Shown here: positions 2,863-57,378 of the stretch, one piece after another
How positions within the stretch are numbered: position 1 is the first letter of the stretch
Layout of the letters: every line of letters begins with the position of its first letter
Notes under the pieces: model-generated
The model's database searches: none
The model's input: the letters and a program-made list of their open reading frames with translations, nothing else
Told to the model about the DNA's origin: nothing
Translations under genes and position numbers: made by a program
Assembly: GCA_041650335.1 (NCBI GenBank)
Contig: JBAZLK010000001.1
Coordinates: 228,940-292,939, forward strand
Length of the DNA stretch: 64,000 bases
DNA from: Patescibacteria group bacterium
GTDB taxonomy: Bacteria; Patescibacteriota; Patescibacteriia; JAHIZJ01
Direction of reading: 5' to 3'

Positions 2863-2864
2863 GG

Positions 2865-3941: not shown

Positions 3942-4014
3942 TGCTGAAAATAACTTTTTTGGCGTCTGCTGAATATTAGTATACCTTTTTTTTCTTACAA
4001 GAACCAGGCGGCTA

Positions 4015-5406: not shown

Positions 5407-6020
5407 AAGTTATTTTTCAGATTACGTATCTGGACCTCAGTCACCACCTCGGTTTCATTCGGCGCCTGACTTTCATTAACATTTATTCGTAAATAAAAGT
5501 TTAAGAGCTTTGTTTCGGTTAAACGGGTCGGCGTCGGCAGGGGATTATGGGTCATATCGCCCGGGTAATCGCCATTGTAATACACGAAGATGGGCGTTGC
5601 CCCATTCCGGACGTATTCGGCAATTGTGGTGACAGACTCGGTGGTCGGGTCGTATACGATCGGAATGCCGCTGGGTTCGACCACCCCTTTTTTAAAAACC
5701 GTTCCATCAAGAAAATACCGGACGCGCTCGATCGCGCCATCGCTATCGATATTGCTAAAAAAGATGATCTCCTGGTCTTCGGCCCGATTGAGAATATACG
5801 AGCCGTCATCACCCGGTGCCGCGTCGCGCAGTTCTTTGACCATCGTTTGGGCGCTTTGGCGTGCATATTCCACTTGTTGTTGCTGTTCGGTGGCGAAGGT
5901 TTGAAAGCGTAAGCCCTGGAAAAAGAAGGTCAATAAAGCCGCCAACGCCAGACTAAAAATCGTAAGCGCAACCAGTGTTTCAATAAGCGTAAACCCAGTT
6001 TTTTTAGTATTGGTAGGCAT
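5403..6020 (-). CDS. Type IV pseudopilin (prepilin-type N-terminal cleavage/methylation domain)
   Basis: KTGFTLIETLVALTIFSLALAALL carries the class III signal-peptide motif G/FTLIE; 205 aa. Confidence 0.8.
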   Translation of the reverse strand: MPTNTKKTGFTLIETLVALTIFSLALAALLTFFFQGLRFQTFATEQQQQVEYARQSAQTMVKELRDAAPGDDGSYILNRAEDQEIIFFSNIDSDGAIERVRYFLDGTVFKKGVVEPSGIPIVYDPTTESVTTIAEYVRNGATPIFVYYNGDYPGDMTHNPLPTPTRLTETKLLNFYLRINVNESQAPNETEVVTEVQIRNLKNNL

Positions 6021-6023
6021 GGT

Positions 6024-7367: not shown

Positions 7368-8571
7368 TGGTCAGGCTATACATTGGTAAAATAATGGCGA
7401 CGGCCATGATGGCGACGGCCACGCCCATGATGACAAGAATGATTGGTTCAATAATCGTAGCCAGCGAGGCCATAGTTTCCTCGACGTCTTCCTCATAAAA
7501 AAGCGCGATTTCTTCCGAGAGTGTGTCCAGCGTACCCGATTGTTCGCCGACATTGATGATCTGAGTGACAACCGGCGGGAAAAGGCGCGGGTATTTTTCG
7601 ATGACGGCGGTTATCGGCACGCCCTGCTTCACGCTGTCAGAAATGGCCATCATGGCATCTTGGTAGAAAACATTGCCGAGCGTTTTTGAAATGATTCTGA
7701 AAACCTCAACAATCGGGATGTCGGTTTTTAACAGGGAGCTCAAGGTTCTGGTAAAGCGGGCTAAATTCACCTTTTTAACAATTTTTCCGAAAATCGGTGT
7801 CCGCAAGAGGATCCGATGATAGAGGCGCCGGCCGGTCTTTGTTCGAATGAGGCGGAAAAAGATAAAGGCGAGAGCGACCGGAATGCCTAATACGAGAAGA
7901 ATATTCTTGGACGCAAAATTGCTTACGGAGATAATAATCCGGGTAATGAGGGGCAAGTCCACACCGCTCTCGGCAAATACCGCCGTTATTTTCGGCACGA
8001 CAAAGATGAACATGACGATGCCGATGCCGATCATCGCGACCAAGATAAAAGCGGGGTAGGTGAGAGCGCCCTTTACTTTCGCCAGCAAATTGTGGTCTTT
8101 CTTCATTTGGATCGTGAGCCGGTCAAGCACGGTTTCAAGCTGACCGGAGACCTCACCGGCTTCGATCATGTTCACGAATACCGGCGAAAACACTTTCGGG
8201 TAATTATGCATGACCGAAGCAAGTGTTTTTCCGGTTTCGACTTCTTGGCGGAGCTGATCGATAATTTTCGCGAAATACTTATTGCCCGTTTGGAGGCTTA
8301 AGGTTTTCAGCGCCTTGGCGATTGAGAAACCTGTCCGGGCCATAACCTGGAGATTTTGGGTGAAGAAGATTTTATCGACCAGCGTGACAGACTTAAATTT
8401 ATCGAGCCAGGACAACTTGGTTGAAGCGCGTCGGTCGACGACGGTAGCTGAAACAAGCAGAAGACCTTCTTTCTTCAGCTGTTCTTGAAGCTCGTTTTGA
8501 TCGGCCGCCTCGCTCTGAGCGCGTTTCATCGCACCCGTGGCGCTTTGGGCCGTATACAAAAATACTGGCAT
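7357..8571 (-). CDS. pilC: Type IV pilus assembly platform protein PilC (GspF family)
   Basis: 404 aa polytopic membrane protein with a duplicated GspF-type domain; positioned between pilB and the pseudopilins. Confidence 0.8.
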   Translation of the reverse strand: MPVFLYTAQSATGAMKRAQSEAADQNELQEQLKKEGLLLVSATVVDRRASTKLSWLDKFKSVTLVDKIFFTQNLQVMARTGFSIAKALKTLSLQTGNKYFAKIIDQLRQEVETGKTLASVMHNYPKVFSPVFVNMIEAGEVSGQLETVLDRLTIQMKKDHNLLAKVKGALTYPAFILVAMIGIGIVMFIFVVPKITAVFAESGVDLPLITRIIISVSNFASKNILLVLGIPVALAFIFFRLIRTKTGRRLYHRILLRTPIFGKIVKKVNLARFTRTLSSLLKTDIPIVEVFRIISKTLGNVFYQDAMMAISDSVKQGVPITAVIEKYPRLFPPVVTQIINVGEQSGTLDTLSEEIALFYEEDVEETMASLATIIEPIILVIMGVAVAIMAVAIILPMYSLTNAI

Positions 8572-8573
8572 GA

Positions 8574-10307
8574 TTAATCCTTCGTTACCCGCAGGACTTC
8601 CTCAATGGTCGTAATACCCATTTTTGCCTTGATAAAGCCGTCTTCCAGCATGGTGGCCATGCCTTTTTTTCGGGCCAGCGGTTGCAACTCTTCGCTGGTG
8701 GCATTTTTTGTCACGAGCTCGGCGATCTCATGGTCAACCTCGAGCACCTCGTAGATACCGAGCCGACCCTTATAGCCAGTTTGGTTGCATTCTCGGCAGC
8801 CCTTGCCGCGATAAAACAACAGCGCTTCTGGCGAGGCGGCGGCCGGCGTCACTGCGCCTTCGCGTTCGAGGGCGGTGAGAAGCTCTTTGAAATTAATCTG
8901 CCGTTCCAGTTCTTCAATCGCTTTCGTGCTCAAGGTATAGCTCATGATACAGTTAGGACAAATTTTTCTGACCAGCCGCTGTGCCATGATTAAATTGGTT
9001 GTAGTCGCAACCAGGAACGATGGGATGCCCATCTCGAGTAAGCGCGGCAAGGCGCCGACCGCATCATTCGTATGCAGGGTCGAGAGAACGAGGTGTCCGG
9101 TCATAGCCGCATTGGCGGAAATCTCAGCCGTTTCTTTATCGCGGATTTCTCCGACCATGATGATATTCGGATCCTGACGGAGTAGGGCGCGCAAACCGAC
9201 CGAAAAACTGAAACCGATTTTCGGGTTTATCTGGCTTTGATTAATTCTCGGAATTCGATACTCGATCGGATCTTCGACGGTGGAAATGTTTACGCCAGGC
9301 TTATTGAGGATGTTTAAAATAGTATAGAGAGTGGTGGTTTTTCCCGATCCAGTCGGACCGGTGACGAGGATCATGCCGTGCGGTTTACTGATATTTTTTT
9401 TCACAATGTTGTAGGCGCTGGTCAGAAGGCCAAGCTGCTCCAAGCTCAGGATTTGAGCGGATTCGTTCAATAACCGCAAGACGACTTTTTCACCGTCATA
9501 CACCGGGATGATCGAAACGCGGAAGGCCACCTTATATTCCTCGGTGCTGACCTTGAACCGGCCATCCTGAGGCAGGCGATGTTCATCGAGCTTTAGATTC
9601 GAAAGAATTTTTATCCGAGCGATCACGCCGGATTGTATTTTTTTTGGCAGGGTCATGACCTCACGCAGGATGCCGTCGATCCGATACCGCACGATGACGT
9701 CACGCTCGGTCGGCTCGATGTGTATATCCGAAGCGCTTTCATAGATGGCATATTCAAGGAGCGTTTCGACAATCCGAATGATCGGCAAATCTTGAGCCAG
9801 TTTTTTCAGGTCACCTTGGTCAGCAGCGGCTTCTTCATGTTCGCCCGGGCTCGTGATTTCTTGAAACTTCGCTTTGATGCCTTTATGGTACTGTTTAATG
9901 ATTTCTTTGATTGAGCTCGGCGTGGTAACGGCAATATTTGGCTCGAGGTTAGTTTTTTTCTTTATGAAGTCGATTATTTCCAGATCGGTCGGATCGGTCA
10001 TGGCCAACTGGATGGTGCCACCCTCCTGGTCATAGGCAACAACCTGATGCACTTGGACAATCGTATCCGGTATAGTTTGGAGTAAATCCTTGCGGATTGC
10101 TTTTCGCTTCAAATCAACGAACGCAAGATTGAAATAACCGGCGATACCCTCGTATAAACCGTTTTCCGTCAGGATCTTTTTTCCGATTAAATAATCAGCC
10201 AACGATACATTCTCGTTGGCGGCATCAGTAATAGCTTTATTAAGATCTGCCTCGGGCAGGATCTTTGATTTCTGGAGTATTTCCTGGATTTGTTCCTGTT
10301 TTAACAT
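8574..10307 (-). CDS. pilB: Type IV pilus assembly ATPase PilB (GspE family)
   Basis: Walker A VTGPTGSGKTTTLYTILN, Asp box and His box (GEIRDKETAEISANAAMTGHLVLSTLHTN), and tetracysteine CPNC...CRECN. Confidence 0.9.
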   Translation of the reverse strand: MLKQEQIQEILQKSKILPEADLNKAITDAANENVSLADYLIGKKILTENGLYEGIAGYFNLAFVDLKRKAIRKDLLQTIPDTIVQVHQVVAYDQEGGTIQLAMTDPTDLEIIDFIKKKTNLEPNIAVTTPSSIKEIIKQYHKGIKAKFQEITSPGEHEEAAADQGDLKKLAQDLPIIRIVETLLEYAIYESASDIHIEPTERDVIVRYRIDGILREVMTLPKKIQSGVIARIKILSNLKLDEHRLPQDGRFKVSTEEYKVAFRVSIIPVYDGEKVVLRLLNESAQILSLEQLGLLTSAYNIVKKNISKPHGMILVTGPTGSGKTTTLYTILNILNKPGVNISTVEDPIEYRIPRINQSQINPKIGFSFSVGLRALLRQDPNIIMVGEIRDKETAEISANAAMTGHLVLSTLHTNDAVGALPRLLEMGIPSFLVATTTNLIMAQRLVRKICPNCIMSYTLSTKAIEELERQINFKELLTALEREGAVTPAAASPEALLFYRGKGCRECNQTGYKGRLGIYEVLEVDHEIAELVTKNATSEELQPLARKKGMATMLEDGFIKAKMGITTIEEVLRVTKD

Positions 10308-33947: not shown

Positions 33948-35312
33948 TCACGGAGCGACGAGGTGGGTTGTGCCGTCCCAGAACGCCAGCTTCAGGTGGC
34001 CGTCTCCCCAGTACTGAAGGCGGTCATTGCCAGGCAGCCAGAGCGGCCCGCCCGCATAGGTATCCGGTAGGCGGCGGCGGTCCCACAGTCCGACGGTACC
34101 GAGGTAGAGCCCGCGCTGGTCGCCAGACTCAGCAAACGCGTATCTGGTCCGGTCGGGTGAGTAGGCGACAGAAGTCAGATTCGCCGTCACTACCACTTTT
34201 CCGCCGGTTCCGGAGAGCGGATCCACCCAGTAAATGCCGTAGAAGTCGGCCCAGAGGAGTATTTCAGGCGCCACCCAGCAAAGCTGCAGCGACGCATTCT
34301 GGAGGGTGCTAATTCTCATGTAAACGGTGTGAACATCGCTCCCGTCGATGCGCATGACGCGGATGATGGCCTGGGTTCCGTACGAATGGTTAACGAAAGC
34401 GATCAGCGAGTCGCCCGGCGAAAACGTCGGGTTGTGGTCGTAGACGAAGCCCTGCGTCTGATAGATCCTCCGCACGACGTTCGAGGGCGCGTCGTACAGA
34501 TAGATTCCGTCGACATAGGCGCCAAAGGCGAGCCGGTCGCCGGAATTCGACCAGACGTAGTCGTCGCTGGCGTGCGGATTCGGAATCTCCGTCCTGATGC
34601 TGCCGTCCCGGTTCGCGATCACGATGCTGTTGTTTGCTGACGTGTAGGCGACATACTGGCCGTTGGGCGACACCCGGTACAAGCCCAGGTTGCTCAAGCC
34701 GGAAGCCAGCACGCCCCACTCAATTCCGTCGGCTCTGATGAGGAACAGCTTGTCGCCGCGGACCTGGGTGAGCATGATGTCCGGGCAGGGCTCGAACGTG
34801 GCCGAGACCGTGGTCGTGTCTTCGCCGGATAGGGTAACCGTCTCGAAGTGCGGGTAGTAACCAGGTAGGCGAAGATACACGTCGCACTTGTCATCGTAGC
34901 CGAGGGGGACGTCGGGAACGATCGCCGGCGTCATGACGGACAGAAGCGTGTCGTTCAGCATGATGTACGCCTGGGGCGGGTTTGACAGCAGGCGCAGGAT
35001 GGCCGGCCGGTGTTCCGAGAAGCTGTGGTACACGGCGGGATTGGCCGAAGCGCTGACTGCGACCGTCTCGGCGTGCGCGTAGTAGCCGTGGATCGTGAAG
35101 GTAACGACATGGTCGCCGTAGTCGACGCCGGCAAGCTCGGCATCCGTCACCAGGCCGGTGTCGATGCCGTCGAGCCAGATGGCCGCGCCTACTGGCAAGG
35201 AACGGCAGTCGATGGTGCCGTGCTTCTCGGGTTCGGTTCCGTTCTGGCTGCAACCGGCAAAGGTGAGAACAAGCGCGGCGCAGATGAAGAGAATGGCCGG
35301 GGAAGTTTTCAT
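33948..35312 (-). CDS. Lipoprotein with PEGA domain(s) and a TolB-like beta-propeller domain
   Basis: Lipobox LTFAGCS; PEGA-like PVGAAIWLDGIDTGL...HVVTFTIHGYYAHAETV; repeated YSPDG/VSPNGQY/SNSGDRLAF blades. ~62% GC against a ~52% backbone. Confidence 0.65.
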   Translation of the reverse strand: MKTSPAILFICAALVLTFAGCSQNGTEPEKHGTIDCRSLPVGAAIWLDGIDTGLVTDAELAGVDYGDHVVTFTIHGYYAHAETVAVSASANPAVYHSFSEHRPAILRLLSNPPQAYIMLNDTLLSVMTPAIVPDVPLGYDDKCDVYLRLPGYYPHFETVTLSGEDTTTVSATFEPCPDIMLTQVRGDKLFLIRADGIEWGVLASGLSNLGLYRVSPNGQYVAYTSANNSIVIANRDGSIRTEIPNPHASDDYVWSNSGDRLAFGAYVDGIYLYDAPSNVVRRIYQTQGFVYDHNPTFSPGDSLIAFVNHSYGTQAIIRVMRIDGSDVHTVYMRISTLQNASLQLCWVAPEILLWADFYGIYWVDPLSGTGGKVVVTANLTSVAYSPDRTRYAFAESGDQRGLYLGTVGLWDRRRLPDTYAGGPLWLPGNDRLQYWGDGHLKLAFWDGTTHLVAP

Positions 35313-35569
35313 GGAGAGGCTCCTTTCATCACCCGCGACGCGGGGCTGAAGGTGGAGGAACTAGGTTTTCGAAACAGCGAAAGAGCTCGTAAATGTAGCA
35401 CCGGGGTAAAGGGCAGTCAAGGCTGTATTATTTGGTAAAATACCGAAATTTGGGTGGACAATATATGGCTTGAGAGAGTATATTTTTAAGAGGAGTTCGG
35501 ATAATAATGAGTTAAGTGAGATAGTTTCGGGTGTTTGGAATGATATATTTCTAGAATACTAATTCATAT

Positions 35570-36100
35570 ATGAGGATAATTACCTTACCACAACTTCATC
35601 AAACTTATGATTATGATTGCGGAGCAAAAGCTTTACAGGCTGTTTTAGTTTATTATGGTATTGAAGTCAGAGAAGACTACATTATTAAATCAGCAGGAAC
35701 CTCAAAAGATGGGACATCAATCCGGGGAATAATAAAAGTTGCCCAGAGCCATGGATTAAAAACCGATTCTAGACAAATGACGATTAATGATATTAAAGGA
35801 TATATTCAAAAGAAGATTCCGGTAATTATTGTTTTGCAAGCATGGGCAGAAAAGAAGAAGGTTAACTGGGAAAATGATTGGATTGATGGTCATTATGTTG
35901 TGGCAGTTGGTTATACAAACGACAGAATACTTTTTGAAGATCCTTATTCTTTTGTGCGCACTTATTTAAAATACGATGAGTTAGAGAAAAGATGGCATGA
36001 TGTTGATACAGATGGAAAAACAAATTTCCATCATGGCATTGCTATATTGGAAAGAGACCACAGTTTAAAAGAGACAAAGTTGTGCATATGGATTAATTAG
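35570..36100 (+). CDS. Peptidase C39-like (papain-fold cysteine peptidase, C39_2-type) standalone domain protein
   Basis: Q...YDYDCGAKALQAVLVYYG (oxyanion Gln plus catalytic Cys), GHYVVAVGY (His) and FEDPY (Asp); no signal peptide; ~36% GC. Confidence 0.65.
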   Translation: MRIITLPQLHQTYDYDCGAKALQAVLVYYGIEVREDYIIKSAGTSKDGTSIRGIIKVAQSHGLKTDSRQMTINDIKGYIQKKIPVIIVLQAWAEKKKVNWENDWIDGHYVVAVGYTNDRILFEDPYSFVRTYLKYDELEKRWHDVDTDGKTNFHHGIAILERDHSLKETKLCIWIN

Positions 36101-36177
36101 CCCGAAAAAATACTTGCTTCACTCCACGGCATATGAGACACAAACGTTAGGTCAAACAAATCTCTAATCCCTAGAAA

Positions 36178-36750
36178 ATGCCAGACCAAAACGCGTTAAT
36201 TAAAAAGACTCGCGAGTTTGTAAAGAAGGCGTTTCAGGACAAGCCGCACTACAGCTTCAATCATTGGTCAGTGATGTACAACCACAGCGTCAATGTTCAG
36301 AAGCTGGCTCTGAAAATTGCCGACGAAATCCATTGTGACAAAGTGGTCGTGGCAATCAGCGCCCTGTTGCATGATATCGGCAAAACATTTAAAGCCGATG
36401 AAATGACGCTGCACAAGGAACACGAAAATTATAATTTGGTAATGGCTGAAGCTTTTTTGAACGGCCTGGCCCTACCAGAAGCCACTTTGCATGCGATTCG
36501 CAAAATCATTTCTTACAAATCAGACTCGGTTGAGATGAAGGTTGTAGATGATGCCGACACGCTCGCGTTCTACCAGGACAAAAAACTTCATATGCTATGG
36601 ATTGCCTGGGCGAGCGAGCGCCAGATGGAAACTGATATTGGCAAGAAGATCAATAAATACGAACGCCTTAATTTCGACATCAGCCGGCGTTTAGGAAAAC
36701 CGTGGTTCGAGCAGACCAAAAAGGACTGGGAGGCGTATCGGAATAATTAA
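36178..36750 (+). CDS. HD-domain phosphohydrolase
   Basis: H...LLHDIGK...DDADTL is the HD motif set; 190 aa. Confidence 0.75.
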   Translation: MPDQNALIKKTREFVKKAFQDKPHYSFNHWSVMYNHSVNVQKLALKIADEIHCDKVVVAISALLHDIGKTFKADEMTLHKEHENYNLVMAEAFLNGLALPEATLHAIRKIISYKSDSVEMKVVDDADTLAFYQDKKLHMLWIAWASERQMETDIGKKINKYERLNFDISRRLGKPWFEQTKKDWEAYRNN

Positions 36751-36772
36751 TCACCTAGTTCGTACGAATACA

Positions 36773-37339
36773 ATGCCAAAACCATTGCTGATCATAATTT
36801 CGGGCAAGCCCGGCACAGGTAAGACAACCCTGGGCAAAAAAATCGCCAAGGAATTTCATCTGCCTTTCATCAGCAAGGACGCCATCAAGGAATCCCTGTT
36901 TGACGACCTGGGCTGGAGCGACCGCGCCTGGTCGAGAAAACTTGGCGTCGCCACGTATTCACTTCTGTACTATTTCATCGAGTCGCTGTTATCGGCCGGG
37001 GTGTCGTTCATTGCCGAGAGCAATTTCAAACCAGAATTGGCCAACGAAACCTTTCAGGCACTGAAGAAAAAACACGGTTTTAAGCTGTTACAGATCATGT
37101 GCGAAACTAAAGGGGAGGTACTGTTTGAACGGTTTAAGGCGCGCACGGAGTCTGGTGAGCGCCATCCCGGACACGTCGACCATTTAAATCTGGACGAGTT
37201 CAAAGAGATGCTATTGAAGGGCGGACACGAACCCCTAGATATCGGCGGCCAGGTGTACCGCCTTGATACGACCGATTTCAACTCGATTGATTACAAAAAA
37301 TTGTTCAGCGCGATTAAATCAGCTCTCATTAGAAAATAA
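36773..37339 (+). CDS. P-loop kinase (AAA_33/polynucleotide-kinase-like)
   Basis: Walker A ISGKPGTGKTTLGKKIAKEF and Walker B-like SFIAESNF; 188 aa; immediately downstream of the HD gene. Confidence 0.6.
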   Translation: MPKPLLIIISGKPGTGKTTLGKKIAKEFHLPFISKDAIKESLFDDLGWSDRAWSRKLGVATYSLLYYFIESLLSAGVSFIAESNFKPELANETFQALKKKHGFKLLQIMCETKGEVLFERFKARTESGERHPGHVDHLNLDEFKEMLLKGGHEPLDIGGQVYRLDTTDFNSIDYKKLFSAIKSALIRK

Positions 37340-37351
37340 GCTAGTCAAATA

Positions 37352-37380
37352 AAAACCCGCCGTAACAGCGGATTTTTATA
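37352..37380 (+). terminator. Rho-independent terminator after the kinase gene
   Basis: aaaaacccgccgtaacagcggatttttat. Confidence 0.55.
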
Positions 37381-37614
37381 TGGCTCGCAAATATTATTTC
37401 TTCAGCGGGTCGTGTTGAGTTTATAAGCTATCCCAAGAGATGATTTGGCGTGGCAAAGAAAATGTCACTCGGATCATTAAGATATTTCTTGCTTGTCAAA
37501 ATTTGTTTACCCAAATTAAAACGGACAGCCCTGGTGCGGACGGATGTCCGTACGAAGCTGCCCGGCCGGCGTGGCCACCCTAGGCGGGTGTCAGCCGGCG
37601 GCCGTGGTGGAAGG

Positions 37615-38391
37615 TCAGGCCCGCGTCATGCCGTTGAAGTTCGGCTTGATGACGTGGTACCGTCCCTGCCAGGCCGCGTTGGTCGTGAGAGCGATCTGCG
37701 CCATGGTTCCGACGTACTGGCCGTTCGTCGAGTTGGCCACGTCGGTGTTCTGCTCCGCCGTCGCCGCGAAGTCGTCGCAGGTGTCGGCGGTGGTGCTCAT
37801 CGGGATCGAGTACTCGGAGGTCTTCAGGTAGGGTAGGTTCGTCGCCGTGTTCGCGTTCTGTTCGCTGGCATCGGCGGCGGTCTTCGTGTCGGTGGTCAGG
37901 GCGGCGTCGGTCTGCGCGTTGGCTCTGCCCTGCGCTTCCTGTGACGCCGAGGTCGATGCCAGCGGGTTCTCGTTGCCGGAGAAGGTGTTCGAAAGAACGG
38001 GAGCCAGGTTCGCGGAAAGGAAGGTCGCGTTGGCTCTGCCCTCGCTTCCTACCGTGACCGCGATGGTCTGCTTCGCGATCCAGCTCGATTCCTCAGCGGT
38101 CTCGTTGTTGGTCGTCAGCTCGTTCTCGGCATAGGTCTTGCTCGTAGTAGCCGCGAACTGATCCACCCCACCCGCAGCCTCGCAGGCGATATCGGTGGAA
38201 GAGCTGATGATGGTCTCGCTGACGGCGACGGCGGTCGATGTGCCGGTGGCGGTCAGCGCGTCCGGAGCGATGGTCGCGACCTGCGCGTCGTTGCTGTACG
38301 CCGTCTTAGCGTTGGTGGCGCTGCAGAACGTGGCCGGAACCAGGAACACAACTGCGAACAGTGCGAGTATCCAGAACTGCGTTCTCCTCAT
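37615..38391 (-). CDS. Secreted Ala/Thr-rich hypothetical protein (signal peptide) on a GC-rich islet
   Basis: AAGGAGGG RBS; MRRTQFWILALFAVVFLVPATFCSA signal peptide; ~62% GC. The ORF extends to 38421 but the RBS supports the Met at 38391. Confidence 0.5.
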   Translation of the reverse strand: MRRTQFWILALFAVVFLVPATFCSATNAKTAYSNDAQVATIAPDALTATGTSTAVAVSETIISSSTDIACEAAGGVDQFAATTSKTYAENELTTNNETAEESSWIAKQTIAVTVGSEGRANATFLSANLAPVLSNTFSGNENPLASTSASQEAQGRANAQTDAALTTDTKTAADASEQNANTATNLPYLKTSEYSIPMSTTADTCDDFAATAEQNTDVANSTNGQYVGTMAQIALTTNAAWQGRYHVIKPNFNGMTRA

Positions 38392-38683
38392 GAGGGGTCC
38401 CTCCTTGAGGTAGAAAATCACGGTACCTGCGTGTCTAGCACCGATGTAGTGGTGTAGCGTTTATTCCTTTCGTGGGTCCTCCAGGTCCCGATAAGGAATG
38501 CCGCCGCAATGGACGACGACGGGTTAGCGGGCGTTGAAACAACACTCACTTCCTCATTAAGAATATCGACAAATTATAGAGAAATCAAGTTCCTGTCAAG
38601 TCTTTATTGACGCGAACGGCATTTTGCTTTCTTTTTCCAGCATTTTTGGTACAATAAAGGCAATAATACGTCATAATAATACG

Positions 38684-39481
38684 ATGGAAACACCAGCCAC
38701 TCCCACGTCCGCCCAACCTGACACGCGCTTTCAGCGATTGCGGCGTTTTAATCTACTGATGTTCATTTTGCATCTCGGTCAGGGCATTGCGATGCTTATT
38801 TTGAGCAATGATTTCAGTGTGCCGGTCACGACCGCGTTTGTTCAGTTTAGCCGCGTAACCAATACACTGGAACCGGTGCTGAACGAAGCCTTCAGGCTGA
38901 AACTTGGTCCGTTGGTCGCCGGTTTCTTGTTTCTCTCGGCCTTGGCCCATCTCATGATCTCACTGCCCCGGATCTATGACTGGTATGTCGCCAATTTGAA
39001 AAAGGGGATGAATCTGGCGCGCTGGATCGAATATGCGTTCAGCTCCTCGATCATGATAGTCGTCATCTCAATGCTGGTTGGAATGTACGATGGCATCAGC
39101 CTCATGTTCGCGTTTTTTCTCAACATGATGATGATCTTGTTCGGCTGGGTGATGGAAGTGCACAATCAAACCACGCCAAAAACGAACTGGATTTCCTATA
39201 TCTTTGGTTGTATCGCCGGTGCCATCCCATGGGTCGCAGTTGCGCTCTATCTATTCTTGTCAGGCAGCGGCGATGCCAAAGCCCCGACATTTGTTTACTG
39301 GATTTTCTTTTCCATATTCCTATTCTTCAATGTATTCGCTGTCAACATGATTCTCCAGTACAAGAAGGTCGGTAAGTGGCGCGATTACCTCTATGGCGAG
39401 CGCGCCTACATCATCCTCAGCCTGGTGGCGAAATCGCTGCTGGCTTGGCAAGTCTGGGCGGGGACGTTGCGGCCAGTTTAA
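38684..39481 (+). CDS. Heliorhodopsin (inverted-topology microbial rhodopsin)
   Basis: Block-by-block resemblance to heliorhodopsin 48C12: RWIEYAFSSSIMIVVI, MILFGW, FGCIAGAIPWVAVALYLF, LFLFFNVFAVNMILQYKKVGKWRDYLYGERAYIILSLVAKSLLAWQVWAGTL. The TM7 Lys sits in the SLVAKS context (retinal Schiff-base position). 7 TM helices. An extended -10 (tggTACAAT) at ~38647-38655 sits upstream of this Met. Confidence 0.88.
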   Translation: METPATPTSAQPDTRFQRLRRFNLLMFILHLGQGIAMLILSNDFSVPVTTAFVQFSRVTNTLEPVLNEAFRLKLGPLVAGFLFLSALAHLMISLPRIYDWYVANLKKGMNLARWIEYAFSSSIMIVVISMLVGMYDGISLMFAFFLNMMMILFGWVMEVHNQTTPKTNWISYIFGCIAGAIPWVAVALYLFLSGSGDAKAPTFVYWIFFSIFLFFNVFAVNMILQYKKVGKWRDYLYGERAYIILSLVAKSLLAWQVWAGTLRPV

Positions 39482-39483
39482 GA

Positions 39484-39585
39484 GCAATTATAAAATTCAA
39501 AATTAAGAATTAATAATTATAGTACCCACCCAAGGTGGGTCACATTCATTCCTCCTTCTGAATTCTGAATTTGGTTTAATTATTA
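39484..39585. repeat. Copy A of a ~90 bp intergenic element with ~15-20 bp terminal inverted repeats (aaattcaaaatt ... ctgaattctgaattt) and a conserved core gggtcacattcatt; contains the hairpin cccacccaaggtgggt
   Basis: Compared by eye with copy B at 47268-47352: the same terminal IR motif (aattcaaaattcaaaatt / cattttgcattttgaatt) and the same core (gggtgacattcatt). Confidence 0.6.
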
Positions 39586-39599
39586 GTAAACAACTCTGT

Positions 39600-40349
39600 A
39601 TGGAAACACCAGCCGAACAAAAACCAGTTGGCTCAGTAGAACAGCCAGTAAAGCCAATTGAAAAACCAGCTAAGAAACACCATCGTCTCCGGACGACACT
39701 GATTGTCCTGGCGATTATCATTGTTGTGCTCGGAGTCGGCGTCGCCGCGACCGGACTGATTACCATACCGGGCCTCTCGGATATTCTTGGTACCAGCAAG
39801 CCGAAAGATCTGGGCGTGAAAGCCAGCCAAGAGGCGTTGACGAGTTTGGAAAAGAAAATGCCGGTAACGATTGAGGGCGGTGCGTCGGAATTATGCCTGG
39901 CCTGTAACCAGACGTATTCGGGTGTGGTTTCAGTTACCGCCAACCGTACGTCCGAAGAGATGACTTCCTTCCTCAAGCTCTGGCCGCGGCAGGAAGACGA
40001 TATTCTAAAAAACACCCAGGTTAAATTTATTGATGGCGGGTTGGAAATATCGACCAAGCTGCACAAATACATTCAAGCGCCCGTCTACGTGAAGGTGCTG
40101 GTCGAGCGGACGTCGAATAAAACGGTGCGACTCAATATTACTCAGGGGAAGATCGGTATTTTCAGCGTACCGGATAAGTACCTCCGTCAAGCGACTGACT
40201 TTTTCCAGGACCTGGTGAATAATCGCCTGGCTGATGTGACCGGCTTTTCCATGGACCGGCTCGAATACCATGATGGGTACTCGACATTTTCCGGTACCTA
40301 TCCGGCGGTAGTGAAGCCGGCGTCAGGCAAGTGGACCGAGACATTTTAA
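39600..40349 (+). CDS. Hypothetical single-pass membrane protein with Lys/Pro-rich N-terminus
   Basis: METPAEQKPVGSVEQPVKPIEKPAKKHHRLRTTLIVLAIIIVVLGVGVAATGLITIPG then a ~190 aa extracytoplasmic domain. Confidence 0.5.
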   Translation: METPAEQKPVGSVEQPVKPIEKPAKKHHRLRTTLIVLAIIIVVLGVGVAATGLITIPGLSDILGTSKPKDLGVKASQEALTSLEKKMPVTIEGGASELCLACNQTYSGVVSVTANRTSEEMTSFLKLWPRQEDDILKNTQVKFIDGGLEISTKLHKYIQAPVYVKVLVERTSNKTVRLNITQGKIGIFSVPDKYLRQATDFFQDLVNNRLADVTGFSMDRLEYHDGYSTFSGTYPAVVKPASGKWTETF

Positions 40350-40371: not shown

Positions 40372-40405
40372 ACCGGGCGCGGCCATGATATTGTGGCCGC
40401 GTCGG
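40372..40405 (+). terminator. Rho-independent terminator
   Basis: gcgcggccatgatattgtggccgcgtcggttttcgtttc: 8 bp stem then a T-rich tract. Confidence 0.6.
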
Positions 40406-40437: not shown

Positions 40438-40857
40438 ATGAGCTCGACGATGTGGTCGTGGAAGCAGTGGGGGAAACTGGTCCTCTACGACGTGTTCTTT
40501 CTGATCGTGATCGGGATCGCCCTGACAGCCGTCAGCCATCGCAGCATCTTTGGTCAGTTGATCTGGCTGGCTGGTCTGACGGGCTTTTCCGGACTGATCG
40601 GATTGGTCTTCAGCATCGGGCCGAGATATTTCGTCAACATCGAAAACCGGCCCGCTCGGATCGCGCTCTGGTTCGTTGTCAGCGCGGCAGTCATCAGCCC
40701 GCTGGCCCTCGGTACCCTCTGGGCCTGGGAACTGAAGGCCGGTTTGGACGCGTTCGCGCTGTTGGGCGGCGGCCTGGCCGGTTACTTCTGGAGCCAGCTT
40801 GATCACTGGCGCCGCACCCTCAGGGCTGGAACAATCCAGCCGTCGCGCCTGGCGTAA
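40438..40857 (+). CDS. Hypothetical 4-TM membrane protein on a GC-rich islet
   Basis: MSSTMWSWKQWGKLVLYDVFFLIVIGIALTAV...; ~60% GC; RBS acggaggggtgtgcATG. Confidence 0.45.
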   Translation: MSSTMWSWKQWGKLVLYDVFFLIVIGIALTAVSHRSIFGQLIWLAGLTGFSGLIGLVFSIGPRYFVNIENRPARIALWFVVSAAVISPLALGTLWAWELKAGLDAFALLGGGLAGYFWSQLDHWRRTLRAGTIQPSRLA

Positions 40858-40904
40858 TGCGCTAGGCCTTTTTTTATCCTCGAGATATTATCAACCACCG
40901 GCTA

Positions 40905-40953: not shown

Positions 40954-42051
40954 TTACTGCGCTCGTATTCGGAAGCCCTTCCAGGCCAAGATAAATGACG
41001 CCACAATCCAGCCGCCGAGGATAGCCAGGGCGGTCGGGTAGTCGAACGGCGTACGGCCGTCGATCGAAATGCCGCGCAATATTTTTAAAAGAGAGGTCAG
41101 GGGCAGGAAGTCAACGATTTTTCCGACCGCCTTTGGCAGCATATCGGGCGAGAAAAAGACACCGGAAAGAAACATCATCGGCGTGGTAATCGCGTTCGCC
41201 ATCGCTTCGGCCGTGTTCACGGTCTTTGCCTGTCCGGCCACGAAAAAGCCGATGTTCAAGAACACGATTGTTCCCACGAGCGTTGTCAGCGCCAACCAGA
41301 CGTAGCTGCCATAGACCTGGACGTGGAAGACAAACCGGCCGACCCCGATAATCAAGGCAATTTGGATCATGGCCAAGAAGAGATAATTGCCAATTTCAGA
41401 AATCAGATAGCTGCGGATATTAATCGGCGTGGCGACTAGCCGTTTCAATATTTTTCGTTCGCGATAGCGGGTGATGCCGACCGCAATGCCGATAATGGAG
41501 GAAAACATGATCGCCATGCCGAGGATGCCGGGCATGATGAAATCGAGGTATTTAATGTTGTGGCCCTGGACGCCCTCAGATCGGACGAGAAAGAGTTTCG
41601 GCGTGCCCGTGCTTTGGAGGGTGTAGTCGTTCAAAAACTGATTTACGACAGTGACGATGATCTGGCTTTGTTGGTTGCTTCCGTCGATAATGACGTTGAA
41701 CGGTATCGGTTCTTTTTGGTCTTTCGGATTAACGGTCCCGAATTCCTTTGGAATGATAATGATGCCGGCCAGTTCGCTTTTTTTCATTTGCTCACGCGCT
41801 GCATCAATCGTGCCGAAATCCTTCTGATAAAAAACATTGAGCCCCATGAGTTGATCGATCAGTTGCCGCGAGGTGTCGTTCCTCGCTTCATCGATGAATT
41901 GGACATTAAATTTCTGCGGCGTGTCAAAACGGAACAAGCCGAAAATAATAAGAAACAAAAGCGGGAACAGCAGCGACCAAAAAAGCGACTGTCGATCCCG
42001 GAAGGTCATTTTGATATTGGCGACGAACAGCCGCCAGGTCGGGTTATTCAC
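40954..42051 (-). CDS. ABC-2 family transporter permease
   Basis: 6 TM helices after a large N-terminal extracytoplasmic loop; ABC-2 architecture; 8 nt overlap with the ATPase gene. Confidence 0.75.
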   Translation of the reverse strand: MNNPTWRLFVANIKMTFRDRQSLFWSLLFPLLFLIIFGLFRFDTPQKFNVQFIDEARNDTSRQLIDQLMGLNVFYQKDFGTIDAAREQMKKSELAGIIIIPKEFGTVNPKDQKEPIPFNVIIDGSNQQSQIIVTVVNQFLNDYTLQSTGTPKLFLVRSEGVQGHNIKYLDFIMPGILGMAIMFSSIIGIAVGITRYRERKILKRLVATPINIRSYLISEIGNYLFLAMIQIALIIGVGRFVFHVQVYGSYVWLALTTLVGTIVFLNIGFFVAGQAKTVNTAEAMANAITTPMMFLSGVFFSPDMLPKAVGKIVDFLPLTSLLKILRGISIDGRTPFDYPTALAILGGWIVASFILAWKGFRIRAQ

Positions 42052-42973
42052 GGAGCCGGCTCCCGGTTAGGTGTAAGAACACATCCTCAAGATTGGCACG
42101 CGCAATCTCAATGTCGCGCAGGGGATTGTTTTGCTCATGCGCCCAACGGATCAGCGGCGGCAGGGTTTCAGAGGCGTGAGTGATCTGGAGGCGATAGGTG
42201 TCTTCGCCGTTTATTTCGGATTCTTTTACGCCCGGTATCGCCAGGAATGTTTTCGGATCGACGTTTTTCTCGAGCTTGAAATGCAGATGGGCGGTCGCCT
42301 GGAGCTGGTGAATCAGATTGGCGGGCGAATCGAGCGCCACGACTTTACCGTGGTCAATGATGCCGACGCGGTCGCAGAGCTCTTCCGCTTCTTCCATATA
42401 GTGCGAGGTGAGGACGACGGTCCGTCCCTGGGAGTTTATTTTTCGGATAAAATCCCACATGTGCCGCCGCGCTTGCGGGTCCAAACCGGTAGTTGGTTCG
42501 TCGAGAAAAACGACTTCCGGTTCATTGACCAGGCTGACGGCGATCGAGAAACGCTGTTGCTGTCCGCCCGAGAGTTCCTTGACGAGCGCTTTTCGTTTTT
42601 CCGACAGCTCGACGATTTCGAGCAGTTCAGCCGCATCAGCTTGCTTCGGATAAAAACTTCCGAAAAGCTTCAAAATTTCCATCAAGTTCAGGTAGTCGAA
42701 AAAAGACGAGGATTGCAGCTGAATACCGATGCGCTGTTTCACTTTCTGCACCTCTTTCCGTGAATCAAGACCGAGCACCGACGTGGTGCCGCGGGTGGGG
42801 TTCTGCAAGCCTTCAATAATCTCAAGGGTGGTTGTTTTGCCGGCGCCATTTGGGCCAAGTAAGCCAAAAATTTCACCTTTCTTGATCGAAAAGGAAACAC
42901 CGTCAACGGCCGTGAGTTCGCCGCCGGGTTGGGGGAATATTTTGACGAGATTGTTTACTTCGATAACCGACAT
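42044..42973 (-). CDS. ABC transporter ATP-binding protein
   Basis: Walker A GLLGPNGAGKTTT, signature LSGGQQQRFSIAVSL, Walker B VVFLDEPTTGLD, H-loop. Confidence 0.9.
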   Translation of the reverse strand: MSVIEVNNLVKIFPQPGGELTAVDGVSFSIKKGEIFGLLGPNGAGKTTTLEIIEGLQNPTRGTTSVLGLDSRKEVQKVKQRIGIQLQSSSFFDYLNLMEILKLFGSFYPKQADAAELLEIVELSEKRKALVKELSGGQQQRFSIAVSLVNEPEVVFLDEPTTGLDPQARRHMWDFIRKINSQGRTVVLTSHYMEEAEELCDRVGIIDHGKVVALDSPANLIHQLQATAHLHFKLEKNVDPKTFLAIPGVKESEINGEDTYRLQITHASETLPPLIRWAHEQNNPLRDIEIARANLEDVFLHLTGSRLRE

Positions 42974-45084: not shown

Positions 45085-45885
45085 ATGGAAAAGATACCTT
45101 TACCAAAAAAATTAGGAATCACCCCGGTTGCCGATCATCAGGCGACCTTCACGATTGAGCCCTGCTATCCCGGATATGGTACCACGCTCGGCAACGCCTT
45201 GCGTCGGGTGCTCTTATCTTCGCTGGAAGGGGGAGCTATTACCGCCGTCAAGATCAAGGGTGTCAATCATGAATTTTCCACCCTGCCGAACGTAAAAGAA
45301 GATGTGGTCGAAATTATTTTGAATCTTAAGGCGATCCGTTTACAAGTGAACACCGATGAGCCTCAAACCGTCACCATCAAGGCCAAGGGCGAGAAGAAGG
45401 TTACCGGCAAGGATATAAAATGTCCGACCGGCGTCGAAGTATTTACTACCGACCAGATCATTGCCACGCTGACAGACAAAAGCGCGGAATTTGAAGCTGA
45501 GCTCCGGGTGGAAAAAGGGCGCGGCTATATTCCCGTCGAAAACCGGGAAAAAGAGAAGAATGAAATTGGCATGATCGCCATTGATGCCGTCTATACGCCA
45601 ATTCGAAACGTCAACTTCGAAGTGGATAGTGTGCGGGTCGGTCAGATGACGAATTTCGATAAGCTCGTCCTTGATATTACTACCGACGGCACGATTTCGC
45701 CGGTGGAAGCCTTTACGCAAGCAACGCAGATTCTCGAAGATCATTTCCAATTCATCCTGGGCGCGGCCAAAGAAGAGCACGCGACCGAGGAGCCGGCCGA
45801 GAAGGAAAAAGAGAAGGAAGAAAAAGCCGCCGAACCGAAGAAGAAACGCGGCCGCCCGAAAAAAACTGAAGCGAAAGAGGAATAA
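45085..45885 (+). CDS. rpoA: DNA-directed RNA polymerase alpha subunit, N-terminal (dimerisation/assembly) domain only, with AT-hook-like Lys-rich tail instead of the alpha-CTD
   Basis: GYGTTLGNALRRVLLSSLEGGAITAVKIKGVNHEFSTLP is the alpha-NTD; the protein ends ...EEHATEEPAEKEKEKEEKAAEPKKKRGRPKKTEAKEE at 266 aa. No helix-hairpin-helix CTD is present. Confidence 0.85.
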   Translation: MEKIPLPKKLGITPVADHQATFTIEPCYPGYGTTLGNALRRVLLSSLEGGAITAVKIKGVNHEFSTLPNVKEDVVEIILNLKAIRLQVNTDEPQTVTIKAKGEKKVTGKDIKCPTGVEVFTTDQIIATLTDKSAEFEAELRVEKGRGYIPVENREKEKNEIGMIAIDAVYTPIRNVNFEVDSVRVGQMTNFDKLVLDITTDGTISPVEAFTQATQILEDHFQFILGAAKEEHATEEPAEKEKEKEEKAAEPKKKRGRPKKTEAKEE

Positions 45886-51570: not shown

Positions 51571-51646
51571 GCCGGAGTAGCTCAGTTGGTAGAGCAACGC
51601 TTTTGTAAAGCGAAGGTCGGGGGTTCGAATCCTCTCTCCGGCTCCA
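51571..51646 (+). tRNA. tRNA-Thr (anticodon UGU)
   Basis: Manual cloverleaf fold of gccggagtagctcagttggtagagcaacgcttttgtaaagcgaaggtcgggggttcgaatcctctctccggctCCA: 7 bp acceptor, D-arm gctc/gagc, anticodon loop ttTGTaa, T-loop ttcgaat, encoded CCA. Confidence 0.85.
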
Positions 51647-52484: not shown

Positions 52485-52558
52485 GGGGGCGTAGTTCAAC
52501 AGTAGAACACTGGTCTCCAAAACCAGAAACGAGGGCGCGACACCTTCCGCCCCTGCCA
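52485..52558 (+). tRNA. Atypical tRNA-Trp (anticodon CCA) with non-canonical D-loop and T-loop
   Basis: gggggcgTAgttcAACAGTAgaacActggtCTCCAAAaccagAAACgagggCGCGACAccttccgcccctGCCA. Acceptor, D-stem, anticodon arm and 3' end closely match bacterial tRNA-Trp (compare E. coli AGGGGCGTAGTTCAATTGGTAGAGCACCGGTCTCCAAAACCGG...CCGCCCCTGCCA). The T-loop reads CGCGACA instead of TΨCGAGU and the D-loop lacks G18G19 (AACAGTA). Confidence 0.6.
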
Positions 52559-55091: not shown

Positions 55092-56846
55092 ATGAATTTC
55101 GCATCTATTATTATTGGACTCCTGGGCATTACCGCGCTTGTTTTTGGAGTCTTTTTTTGCCGGCATTTTTATCGTCAGCGTAAAATCTTGGAAGATAAGG
55201 CGCGCCACATGGAACGGCGCATGTTTGAATTGTCGATCTTAAAAGAGCTCGGCGACCGGATCGGCTACTCGCTCAATGTTCAGAACATCGTTGACATTAT
55301 TACCGGTTCGCTCCACCAGTTTATCGAGTACAGTGCTGTTTCGTACATGCTCCTGGAGCCGGAGAAACTCATCTTCAAAGTTCATCTTGAGAAGTCGGTC
55401 TCCCGAAAATTTATCAACGACATAAAGGATCGGATGCAAAAATCGCTCTCCGCCCTGCTGAACAAAGACATGCAAAAGATGACGGTCGAAGAAGTCTTGT
55501 CGGGCGCGATCGTCGTCGACGAAACTGACGCGCCGGTACAGTCGTTTTTTAACATTCCGCTGGTCATCGGCGAAAAGGTCGTCGGTGTTCTGACCGTCGC
55601 GCACACGATAGCGGGTTTGTACAAGGAAGAAGAGACTACCATTCTCTATAAAATAACTCGGCAGGCTTCTCAGGCCGTGACGCGGTTGCAGGAGGTCATC
55701 ACGATCGAGCAGCGAAAATTGAACGCCATGGTGGCGAGCATGACCGAGGGGGTTGTGATGACTGATCGCGATTATCGCGTCGTCGTGGTGAATCCGGTAG
55801 CCCGGCAGATCATCGGCCTCACTGACCGCCAGGAGGTAACCATTTTTGATTTTATCGACCGTCTCGGCGGCAAGTTTGATATTCGCGGACGGCTCGAGGA
55901 AAGCGTCAAGCTTGATAAAACGTTGTTGGCTGACGACGTGATTATTGGGGATCGCTCATTTCAGATTTTCGTCTCGCCGGTCAAAGGGACGATCGGTTTA
56001 AATGCCAGCGCGGTCTTGGGCGGCGTGGTGATTTTCCACGATATCACCCATGATAAGGAATTAGAAAAACTCCGCGAGGACTTCACCTCCATGATGGTTC
56101 ATGAGCTCCGGTCACCGCTGGCAGCGATTAAAATGATGACGCAATACCTCGATAAGAAGAAAACAGCCAAAGACCAAAAAACCCAAGGCCAGTATAATCA
56201 GCTGATTCAAAAAAACGCAGTCAGCATGCTCAATCTGGTCAACGACCTGCTCGATGTGGCAAAGCTCGAATCCGGTCGGTTTGAGGTCCACCTCGAGCCG
56301 ATGAATATTGCCACCACAATAAAGGATAAAGCCGCTTTCTATGAGCCGTTAGCCAAGAATCGGGAAATCGATCTCCAGGTTCAGCTGGCCGCAAATTTGC
56401 CAGAAGAAATCAATGGCGACACCGTTCGGATCGGTCAGGTGCTCGGTAATTTAATTTCAAATTCTCTCAAATATACGCATGGCGGCGGGACGGTAACAAT
56501 CCAATGTTTCGTTCATAAAAAAGGACGGTCCTGGAGCGAAGAAGCGGCGCATGAAAATATCCATTGGTTCCTGCCGGCAAAAAACGATCCGAAACTTCAA
56601 GCCGTCCCGGACACGGTCGTCGTGGCGATTACCGATACCGGCGATGGCATTGCCGCGGTAAATATCCCTCAGCTGTTTAACAAATTCGTCCAGTTCCGGT
56701 CTCGGGCCACGGACGAAGAAGGCCAGAAGGGAACCGGGCTTGGTTTAGTTATTGCCAAGGGAATTGTCGAGGCGCATAATGGAACCATCGGCGTTGCTTC
56801 CGAGGAAAGCCATGGGAGTACGTTTTATTTCACGTTACCAATGTGA
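55092..56846 (+). CDS. Sensor histidine kinase (TM, GAF-like, PAS-like, HisKA, HATPase_c)
   Basis: H-box MVHELRSPLAAIKMM; N, G1 (DTGDGI) and G2 (GTGLGLVIAKGIVEAHNGTIGV) boxes; N-terminal TM. Confidence 0.85.
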   Translation: MNFASIIIGLLGITALVFGVFFCRHFYRQRKILEDKARHMERRMFELSILKELGDRIGYSLNVQNIVDIITGSLHQFIEYSAVSYMLLEPEKLIFKVHLEKSVSRKFINDIKDRMQKSLSALLNKDMQKMTVEEVLSGAIVVDETDAPVQSFFNIPLVIGEKVVGVLTVAHTIAGLYKEEETTILYKITRQASQAVTRLQEVITIEQRKLNAMVASMTEGVVMTDRDYRVVVVNPVARQIIGLTDRQEVTIFDFIDRLGGKFDIRGRLEESVKLDKTLLADDVIIGDRSFQIFVSPVKGTIGLNASAVLGGVVIFHDITHDKELEKLREDFTSMMVHELRSPLAAIKMMTQYLDKKKTAKDQKTQGQYNQLIQKNAVSMLNLVNDLLDVAKLESGRFEVHLEPMNIATTIKDKAAFYEPLAKNREIDLQVQLAANLPEEINGDTVRIGQVLGNLISNSLKYTHGGGTVTIQCFVHKKGRSWSEEAAHENIHWFLPAKNDPKLQAVPDTVVVAITDTGDGIAAVNIPQLFNKFVQFRSRATDEEGQKGTGLGLVIAKGIVEAHNGTIGVASEESHGSTFYFTLPM

Positions 56847-56868
56847 ATAAAAAAAGAGTATACTAAAC

Positions 56869-57378
56869 ATGAATATTATGAAAAAAACACCCGCGAACGC
56901 ACAGGCCGAGGACTACCGATCGCATTCAGTGCTCGTTGCCGATGATAATATCGCCACGCTCGAAGTCCTTACTGACGCGCTGAAGGATGCCGGCTTCATG
57001 GTCTATGCGGCCAAGGACGGCAGGGAAGCGCTCGAGCTGGCGTTGAAGAAACATCCCGATATCATCCTGCTGGACATTCAGATGCCGAAGATGGACGGCA
57101 TCAGCATGTTAACCGAGCTGCGCAAAGATCGCTGGGGGCGATATGCGATGGTAATTCTATTGACGCATTTACCGGGCTCAGATCGGGTCGCCAGGGCAAT
57201 ACAGCTGGGCGCCTTTGACTATCTCCAAAAAGCGAACTGGGATCTTGATTCAATCGTTGATCAGGTAAAGAAACGCATTGCGCTCAAAGTAGAGGCAGAA
57301 AAGAGAAAAACCAAATATAAACTCAAGCCCATACCGGCGTCAAAGAAAGAAATGGTTCAACGCCGAAAGATATCGTAA
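56869..57378 (+). CDS. Response regulator, receiver domain only, with Lys-rich C-terminal tail
   Basis: VLVADDN...DIILLDIQMPKMDG carries the phospho-acceptor Asp context, ...LLTHLPG. No output domain; the tail is KKRIALKVEAEKRKTKYKLKPIPASKKE. Confidence 0.8.
   Translation: MNIMKKTPANAQAEDYRSHSVLVADDNIATLEVLTDALKDAGFMVYAAKDGREALELALKKHPDIILLDIQMPKMDGISMLTELRKDRWGRYAMVILLTHLPGSDRVARAIQLGAFDYLQKANWDLDSIVDQVKKRIALKVEAEKRKTKYKLKPIPASKKEMVQRRKIS

Follow-up and report, generated by a model that had tools for sequence, protein, structure and literature searches.

A canonical heliorhodopsin in a Patescibacteria genome, with a probable role as a light sensor using scavenged retinal

A 64,000-nucleotide stretch of DNA from a Patescibacteria group bacterium (GenBank assembly GCA_041650335.1, contig JBAZLK010000001.1, positions 228,940 to 292,939 of the forward strand), referred to here as the window, carries a gene for a heliorhodopsin (HeR), and it is virtually certain that the encoded protein is a full-length canonical prokaryotic member of this family. 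The likeliest role of the protein is that of a slow-cycling light sensor or regulator, because the residues that are the hallmark of proton-transporting HeRs are absent. By analogy with characterized HeRs, we hold with moderate confidence that it would fulfil this role with scavenged retinal, and in a single blended judgement that takes the family identity and this mechanism together, we consider the account likely. The protein itself is already known, being identical to GenBank MFA5106960.1, which is named 'MAG: heliorhodopsin HeR [Patescibacteria group bacterium]' (MAG, metagenome-assembled genome), and HeRs of the candidate phyla radiation (CPR) have been published in at least two papers. 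The exact sequence is also found on the 363.8 kb contig k141_1409060 in ENA (ERZ27247363).

The assignment to the HeR family, which the original prediction made from the DNA letters, is upheld by highly significant matches to profile hidden Markov models. The protein matches Pfam PF18761 with an E-value of 1.3e-97 over model positions 1–242 of 242, and scores 337.5 bits against the NCBIfam HeR equivalog NF038020, for which the cut-off is 100. The AlphaFold (AF2) model, built from 23 sequences, has a mean predicted local distance difference test score (pLDDT) of 82 and contains seven helices (residues 14–41, 74–91, 111–132, 137–163, 169–192, 202–224, and 235–261), with the long β-hairpin specific to HeRs (residues 45–73, strands 45–56 and 61–73) joining helices 1 and 2. 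When the model was compared with the PDB using Foldseek, the top ten matches, which were all of those with an E-value of 0.001 or lower, were HeR structures with template modelling scores of 0.81–0.89, and the score to the structure 6is6 was 0.84/0.89. Type-1 rhodopsins ranked after the HeRs, with scores of 0.5–0.6 and 10–19% identity.

Structure 6is6 is the HeR from a Thermoplasmatales archaeon, TaHeR (PDB 6is6, 7u55, 7clj), and is also the best sequence match in the PDB, with an E-value of 8.8e-79. The actinobacterial founding member of the family, 48C12 (PDB 6su3, 6su4, 6uh3), provides a second solved structure for comparison, and its match to the window protein has an E-value of 4.6e-62 (6su3). 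On these values, TaHeR is the closer solved relative in sequence. Over the whole length, TaHeR and the window protein share 52% identity, whereas 48C12, although it shares the family, the fold, and the key residues, is only 43–44% identical in the Foldseek comparison. The same order holds in the 52-residue stretch that spans transmembrane helices 6 and 7 (TM6–TM7), where identity is ~69% to 48C12 and ~75% to TaHeR, so that the earlier description of this stretch as near-identical to 48C12 was overstated. The stretch that had been quoted is present in the protein except for its first letter, with the protein reading IFLFFN... and not LFLFFN..., and the four other quoted blocks were all found: RWIEYAFSSSIMIVVI at residues 113–128, MILFGW at residues 150–155, FGCIAGAIPWVAVALYLF at residues 174–191, and SLVAKS at residues 246–251. 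The window protein differs from TaHeR in its host, which is bacterial rather than archaeal, in its N-terminal tail, and in the loop between helices 5 and 6 (SGSGDAKAP), which is longer by four residues. In addition, TaHeR has been solved, whereas the window protein is known from its sequence and a model.

The residues that form the chromophore site in TaHeR and 48C12 are retained in the window protein. We mapped them through the alignment with TaHeR, for which the PDB chain numbers run 6 ahead of the published ones (H29, E114, and K244 in the chain are H23, E108, and K238). The retinal-binding lysine expected in TM7 is present on alignment to the solved HeRs as Lys250 (TaHeR K238, 48C12 K241), preceded by Ser246 of the SxxxK motif (TaHeR S234, 48C12 S237), and the counterion corresponds to Glu116 (TaHeR E108, 48C12 E107). 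The alignment and the model predict that Lys250 is placed to form the protonated Schiff base with retinal and that Glu116 is the only counterion of this base. His30 and His89 correspond to the histidines of the Schiff-base cavity (TaHeR H23 and H82, 48C12 H23 and H80), and Glu158 (48C12 E149), Gln225 (TaHeR Q213, 48C12 Q216), and Glu239 (TaHeR E227, 48C12 E230) belong to the polar network. Judged by sequence, the polar network of TaHeR and 48C12 comprising His30/His89, the serine, Glu158, Gln225, and Glu239 is intact; the two histidines, the glutamate counterion, the SxxxK motif, and the glutamine and glutamate of the network are all shared with TaHeR. In an alignment of 23 sequences, including the window protein and relatives that are 66–90% identical to it, the invariant residues are H30, H89, N110, R113, W114, E116, S120, S122, D136, N147, E158, Q225, E239, S246, and K250.

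The distribution of charge bears on the orientation of the protein in the membrane. With the helices of the model as boundaries, 12 lysine and arginine residues fall on the N-terminal side, counted as the N-terminal tail, the start of helix 1, and loops 2/3, 4/5, and 6/7, versus five on the other side, three of which are in the long hairpin. From this positive-inside count, an inverted topology is therefore predicted, with the N terminus in the cytoplasm and the C terminus outside. The charges in the loops that would face the cytoplasm are R96, K105, and K106 in loop 1 and K227, K228, K231, and R233 in loop 3. Within loop 3, K228 is invariant in the 23-sequence alignment and K227 and D234 are nearly so.

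Proton transport has been demonstrated for some HeRs, from viruses (PMC9448325), and the window protein has both a glutamate counterion and, in Q225 and E239, a match to the Gln/Glu pair of the proton-accepting group. Nevertheless, it is extremely unlikely that the protein resembles the viral V2HeR3 in being a light-gated channel or pump for protons. The hallmark of the proton-transporting viral HeRs is Glu191 together with Trp195 in V2HeR3, for which the TaHeR equivalents are I199 and F203 (PMC9448325). In the TaHeR alignment, the same positions of the window protein are occupied by Ile211 and Phe215, so that both proteins have isoleucine and phenylalanine where the transporting HeRs have glutamate and tryptophan, and the window protein is therefore grouped with the non-transporting type. 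TaHeR, with its 52% identity to the window protein, has a hydrophobic extracellular half and showed no transport (summarised in PMC9448325). We rejected the proton-transporter reading because the residues equivalent to E191 and W195 differ.

As a sensor or regulator, the window protein would be expected to bind all-trans retinal taken up from outside, as TaHeR, 48C12, and the regulatory HeRs suggest. By analogy with TaHeR and 48C12, it would absorb green light, enter a slow photocycle lasting seconds, and move no ions, and the light signal may then pass to a putative partner protein through the positively charged cytoplasmic loops. The external origin of the retinal is suggested by the gene content of the window. 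Pfam scans of the window open reading frames (ORFs) of at least 110 aa that were taken as real genes, together with three more genes from precomputed Pfam hits, gave no match to Blh, carotenoid oxygenase, CrtB, CrtI, or CrtY in the 64 kb, and a hydropathy check found no Blh-type membrane protein, multi-pass and rich in His, among the unannotated window ORFs. The absence of retinal-biosynthesis genes (blh/crt) from the window, asserted in the original prediction, is thus borne out. Rhodopsin-bearing Saccharibacteria, another CPR lineage, were likewise found to have no blh, and a host-derived retinal has been proposed for them (Jaffe et al, PMC9296517). TaHeR comes from organisms without a retinal pathway and has a lateral opening through which external retinal is quickly bound (cited in PMC9296517), so that the hosts of TaHeR and of the window protein both appear to lack retinal synthesis, implying an external supply. 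Because the window has no retinal-synthesis genes and none were found in the published rhodopsin-bearing Saccharibacteria, the most likely source of the chromophore is scavenging, either from a host or from the environment, in the way that TaHeR takes up retinal in vitro. The supply of chromophore had been presented as an open question, but both the uptake of external retinal by TaHeR and the proposal of host retinal were already published (PMC9296517).

The family had also been described as having no established function, which is out of date in view of the viral proton transport (PMC9448325) and of regulatory HeRs, for which the reported partners are photolyase, glutamine synthetase, and, for OcHeR, the ABC multidrug exporter OmrDE (PMC11109279, its references 12 and 13). 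In the regulatory HeRs, positively charged loops 1 and 3 mediate partner binding, and these loops are charged and conserved in the window protein too. In contrast to the regulatory HeRs, no partner gene of theirs is both co-oriented with the window gene and adjacent to it.

Nothing speaks against membership of the HeR family, but several observations weigh against a sensor that uses scavenged retinal. The groups of HeR-partner operons in Cho et al (2024) comprise glutamine synthetase, NAD+ synthetase, and photolyase, as well as MerR, TerC, ABC transporter, SDR, alpha/beta hydrolase, DUF2177, and DUF2238, and none of the ten recurrent partners (PMC11109279) is co-oriented with and adjacent to the window gene. 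No neighbour is common to more than ~30% of the 80 related HeR loci, and the search for retinal genes covers 64 kb of a 364-kb contig. Further, many close relatives come from MAGs whose titles suggest groundwater, where the use of a light sensor is not obvious. These titles, which include NC_groundwater and labels with GW or RIFCS and suggest groundwater or aquifer sources, could together with the lack of a retinal pathway in the window point to a role that needs neither light nor retinal, for example a structural or chaperone-like role in the membrane. We regard such a role as highly unlikely, in that every retinal-pocket and Schiff-base residue is invariant among the aligned relatives, there are also relatives from lakes and marine biofilms, and proteins of the TaHeR type bind external retinal readily (PMC9296517). 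The invariance of the retinal pocket indicates selection for chromophore chemistry. The window protein thus adds a data point in which the chromophore-site residues are all kept in ultra-reduced bacteria, with no retinal pathway in the DNA examined.

We also looked for a partner of the light sensor or regulator through gene neighbourhoods. ORFs were clustered from 82 loci, namely the window segment with its duplicate (L001) and 80 related loci, taking 10 kb on each side of the HeR gene where available, and no broadly conserved HeR neighbour emerged. The recurrent neighbours are a protein family designated c3 (9 loci), a 184-aa lipoprotein designated c2 (14 loci), the pyrimidine-dimer DNA glycosylase Pyr_excise (7 loci), and MsrA (5 loci); all are lineage-restricted, and we accordingly rejected a conserved partner on the basis of gene neighbourhood. 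The lack of a fixed genomic partner fits the published idea of 'photosensory promiscuity', and the same-strand clusters of HeR with the glycosylase or with small envelope proteins in some relatives could guide a search for partners. Neither c2 nor Pyr_excise has a homologue anywhere in the window.

In several Patescibacteria loci, the Pyr_excise glycosylase (~110 aa, E-value 3e-25) follows the HeR gene on the same strand (Table 1). The gap between the two genes is 1–13 nt, and 513 nt in L020, and the gene order in L011 and L019 is lipoprotein c2, c3, HeR, and glycosylase. A link between HeR and a photolyase has been published; our literature search found no report of one between HeR and this glycosylase.

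The c3 gene, for which we found no Pfam match, stands beside the HeR gene on the same strand in its nine loci, the window included, upstream of it in some and downstream in others. A search of 5.8 billion proteins gave only 39 members of the family, all from Patescibacteria where named. Its fold bears a weak likeness to tubular binders of lipids and carotenoids, namely YceB, the takeout-family β-carotene-binding protein, and CETP, and, even where HeR is missing, its members are repeatedly found close to ABC-2 transporters and a Zincin_1 protein; two homologues (L083 5001–5774 and L087 5001–5807) lie near an ABC-2 transporter with no HeR. Together, context and fold hint that the family handles lipids, its hosts being bacteria that are believed to scavenge them. 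One could imagine that HeR works with c3, which would serve either as a signalling partner or, through its domain beyond the membrane anchor, as a lipid- or carotenoid-binding module that picks up retinal or a different hydrophobic ligand outside the cell and passes it on to HeR; we consider this unlikely. A more specific form, in which c3 in one Patescibacteria lineage captures retinal or carotenoid from the host or environment and delivers it to the opsin, is a shade less likely again; if true, organisms unable to make retinal would have in c3 an accessory dedicated to scavenging the chromophore. Several c3 homologues are on short contigs equal in size to HeR-bearing contigs. On long contigs, none of the seven homologues that were checked has a HeR gene within 5 kb, and for this reason c3 was rejected as a dedicated HeR partner. 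The possibility that c2 and c3 are distant homologues was likewise rejected, with an hhalign probability of 3%.

A further candidate partner is the ABC-2-type transporter encoded at 40954–42973. ABC transporters are among the ten recurrent HeR operon partners (PMC11109279), the window transporter lies 1.5 kb downstream of HeR, and the positively charged intracellular loops of HeR are conserved, such that HeR could be pictured as a light-dependent modulator of this transporter, as has been reported for OcHeR with OmrDE. This arrangement is very unlikely here. The transporter is on the opposite strand, with two genes and two terminator-like hairpins between it and HeR, and is of the ABC-2 (DrrAB-like) importer/exporter type, whereas OmrDE is of a heterodimeric type. 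Of the 82 clustered loci, 24 contain ABC ATPases, but only five of the 27 copies are within 1.5 kb of HeR, a proximity close to chance expectation if ~10–20 such genes are assumed per ~1-Mb genome, and the arrangement of c3 with ABC-2 persists without HeR in L083 and L087. The transporter was therefore rejected as a HeR partner on strand, transporter class, and chance-level frequency.

Table 1 Features at and around the heliorhodopsin gene (window coordinates, except for the glycosylase rows, which use the coordinates of the named loci).
Feature	Position	Strand	Details
Ala/Thr-rich secreted protein	37615..38421	-	268-aa ORF, divergent from HeR; signal-like hydrophobic segment from Met11
Candidate extended -10 element TGgTACAAT	38647..38655	+	28 nt 5' of the ATG; read from the sequence, tentative
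Heliorhodopsin (HeR) coding sequence	38684..39481	+	265 aa + TAA stop; Pfam, NCBIfam, PDB, AF2/Foldseek, GenBank identity
GAA codon of Glu116	39029..39031	+	predicted single Schiff-base counterion; TM3 RWIEY motif; aligned to TaHeR E108, 48C12 E107
AAA codon of Lys250	39431..39433	+	predicted retinal Schiff-base lysine; S246-L-V-A-K250, TM7; aligned to TaHeR K238, 48C12 K241
c3	39600..40349	+	249 aa; one N-terminal membrane helix and a ~190-aa beta-rich domain beyond it (placement outside the cell assumed)
Terminator-like GC-rich hairpin	40376..40403	+	just after c3; 12-pair stem with 8 GC pairs, then T-rich tail; GGTTTTCGTT
Small membrane protein	40438..40857	+	139 aa; gene call; at least 3 hydrophobic segments (hydropathy); no Pfam match
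ABC-2-type transporter, permease	40954-42051	-	PF12698, E 1.3e-40; convergent with the HeR side
ABC-2-type transporter, ATPase	42044-42973	-	PF00005, E 5.9e-31; convergent with the HeR side
HeR-linked glycosylase, L006	10811-11146
HeR-linked glycosylase, L011	10796-11128
HeR-linked glycosylase, L019	10778-11110
HeR-linked glycosylase, L054	2859-3188
HeR-linked glycosylase, L020	11275-11604

The start of the HeR gene at 38684, as originally predicted, stands, but its length of 266 aa does not, with 265 aa and a TAA stop codon counted from the ATG (Table 1). The longest ORF at this position runs from a TTG start (38624–39481, + strand). The ATG is favoured because the alignment column of Met1 does not vary among 22 homologues (255–267 aa) and because the candidate promoter element TGgTACAAT sits within the longer ORF that starts at TTG. 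We grade this element as weak because it was not reported by a two-hexamer promoter scan. The HeR gene had been placed among compositional islets, but the two 1-kb bins that hold it have a GC content of 0.54 and 0.49 versus ~0.51 for the window, and are not anomalous. Downstream, the spacer between HeR and c3 is 118 nt, AT-rich, and contains a promoter-like site at 39496–39523, and a second hairpin (40847–40867) follows the gene for the 139-aa membrane protein. HeR may be either monocistronic or co-transcribed with c3, and the strong hairpin that follows c3, judged from its sequence, is likely the end of a HeR–c3 transcript or of a c3-only transcript.

The neighbours named in the original prediction are real, with the secreted Ala/Thr-rich ORF upstream and membrane ORFs at 39600–40349 and 40438–40857 downstream. 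The characterization of the surroundings as an envelope or surface neighbourhood holds only in part, since an HD hydrolase, an AAA_33 kinase, and the infA-rpsM-rpsK-rpsD-rpoA-rplQ cluster are equally close. A close relative of the window, L002, has housekeeping proteins that are 94–99% identical to those of the window and a HeR that is 90% identical, and encodes an orthologue of the 139-aa membrane protein in the same place with 85% identity. L002 also has an extra ORF between HeR and c3, and is without the C39 peptidase and the Ala/Thr-rich secreted protein of the window. These differences indicate that the immediate flanks of HeR are variable, and the Ala/Thr-rich protein, being absent from the closest relative, is therefore not part of a conserved HeR unit. 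The variable region beside HeR extends over 35313–38683, where L002 carries other ORFs and the flanking genes are 84–99% identical. Farther away, at 55092–57378, are the genes for a GAF-PAS histidine kinase and a stand-alone response regulator; at 16 kb downstream, they are too distant from HeR for linkage. Histidine kinases near HeRs have been described in several phyla, including Patescibacteria (Bulzu et al, PMC8612252).

The host is a member of the Patescibacteria (CPR; Kerfeldbacteria/ABY1-like). The best 120 homologues listed are 66–90% identical to the window protein and, where named, come from MAGs of Patescibacteria, Kerfeldbacteria, or an unclassified 'bacterium'; the majority of the named ones already bear the name HeR. 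The 80 related genome loci are nearly all from Patescibacteria MAGs. HeRs have been reported from a range of CPR classes, ABY1 among them, and SLVAK is a common motif of theirs (Chiriac et al, 2022, PMC9166423); Patescibacteria were included in an analysis of HeR neighbourhoods (Bulzu et al, 2021, PMC8612252). The window protein shares with these published HeRs the host group, the SLVAK motif, and the lack of an obvious partner; it shows no substantive difference from them and is one more member of the group. Some third-party annotation (TPA) MAG records of HeR loci (L002, L005, L016, L017, and others) are titled 'uncultured Gammaproteobacteria', 'Actinomycetota', or 'Saccharibacteria', labels that seem mistaken in view of the gene content and of the 90–99% identity to window genes. 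A monoderm-type envelope is the distribution rule for HeR hosts. CPR cells are described as monoderm-like (PMC8612252). Among the window genes, the Pfam scans revealed envelope-related genes for a type IV pilus, Mur/PBP proteins, and ABC-2, and no outer-membrane gene.

The remainder of the window contains a type IV pilus cluster (1.7–10.3 kb) and a division and cell-wall cluster with mraZ-mraW-PBP-Mur-FtsW (13–30 kb), along with genes for SSB, a PEGA/beta-propeller protein, the C39 peptidase, the HD hydrolase, the AAA_33 kinase, an infA-rpsM-rpsK-rpsD-rpoA-rplQ-rplM-rpsI block, glycosyltransferases, ProRS, BipA, TruB, and others. An Rfam scan of the window detected two tRNAs only, and no RNA element near HeR. 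The second tRNA (52485–52555, 56 bits in Rfam) is absent from the ARAGORN output, in which the only tRNA is tRNA-Thr(TGT) at 51571–51646. The rpoA gene (45085–45885) encodes only 266 aa, with Pfam matches to the N-terminal and insert domains and none to the α C-terminal domain. The rplQ gene starts 16 nt after rpoA, which therefore leaves no room for this domain, and the rpoA orthologue in L002 has the same length. The PEGA/beta-propeller gene (33948–35312), located in the kilobase of highest GC content in the window (0.61 versus ~0.51), is nevertheless 92% identical in L002. The type IV pilus cluster (1740–10307) looks complete, with PilO, PilN and PilM-like proteins, two pilin-like proteins, PilC, and a PilB-type ATPase. 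Both pilin-like proteins have N-methylation motifs, and one of them carries CarboxypepD_reg/Ig-like domains.

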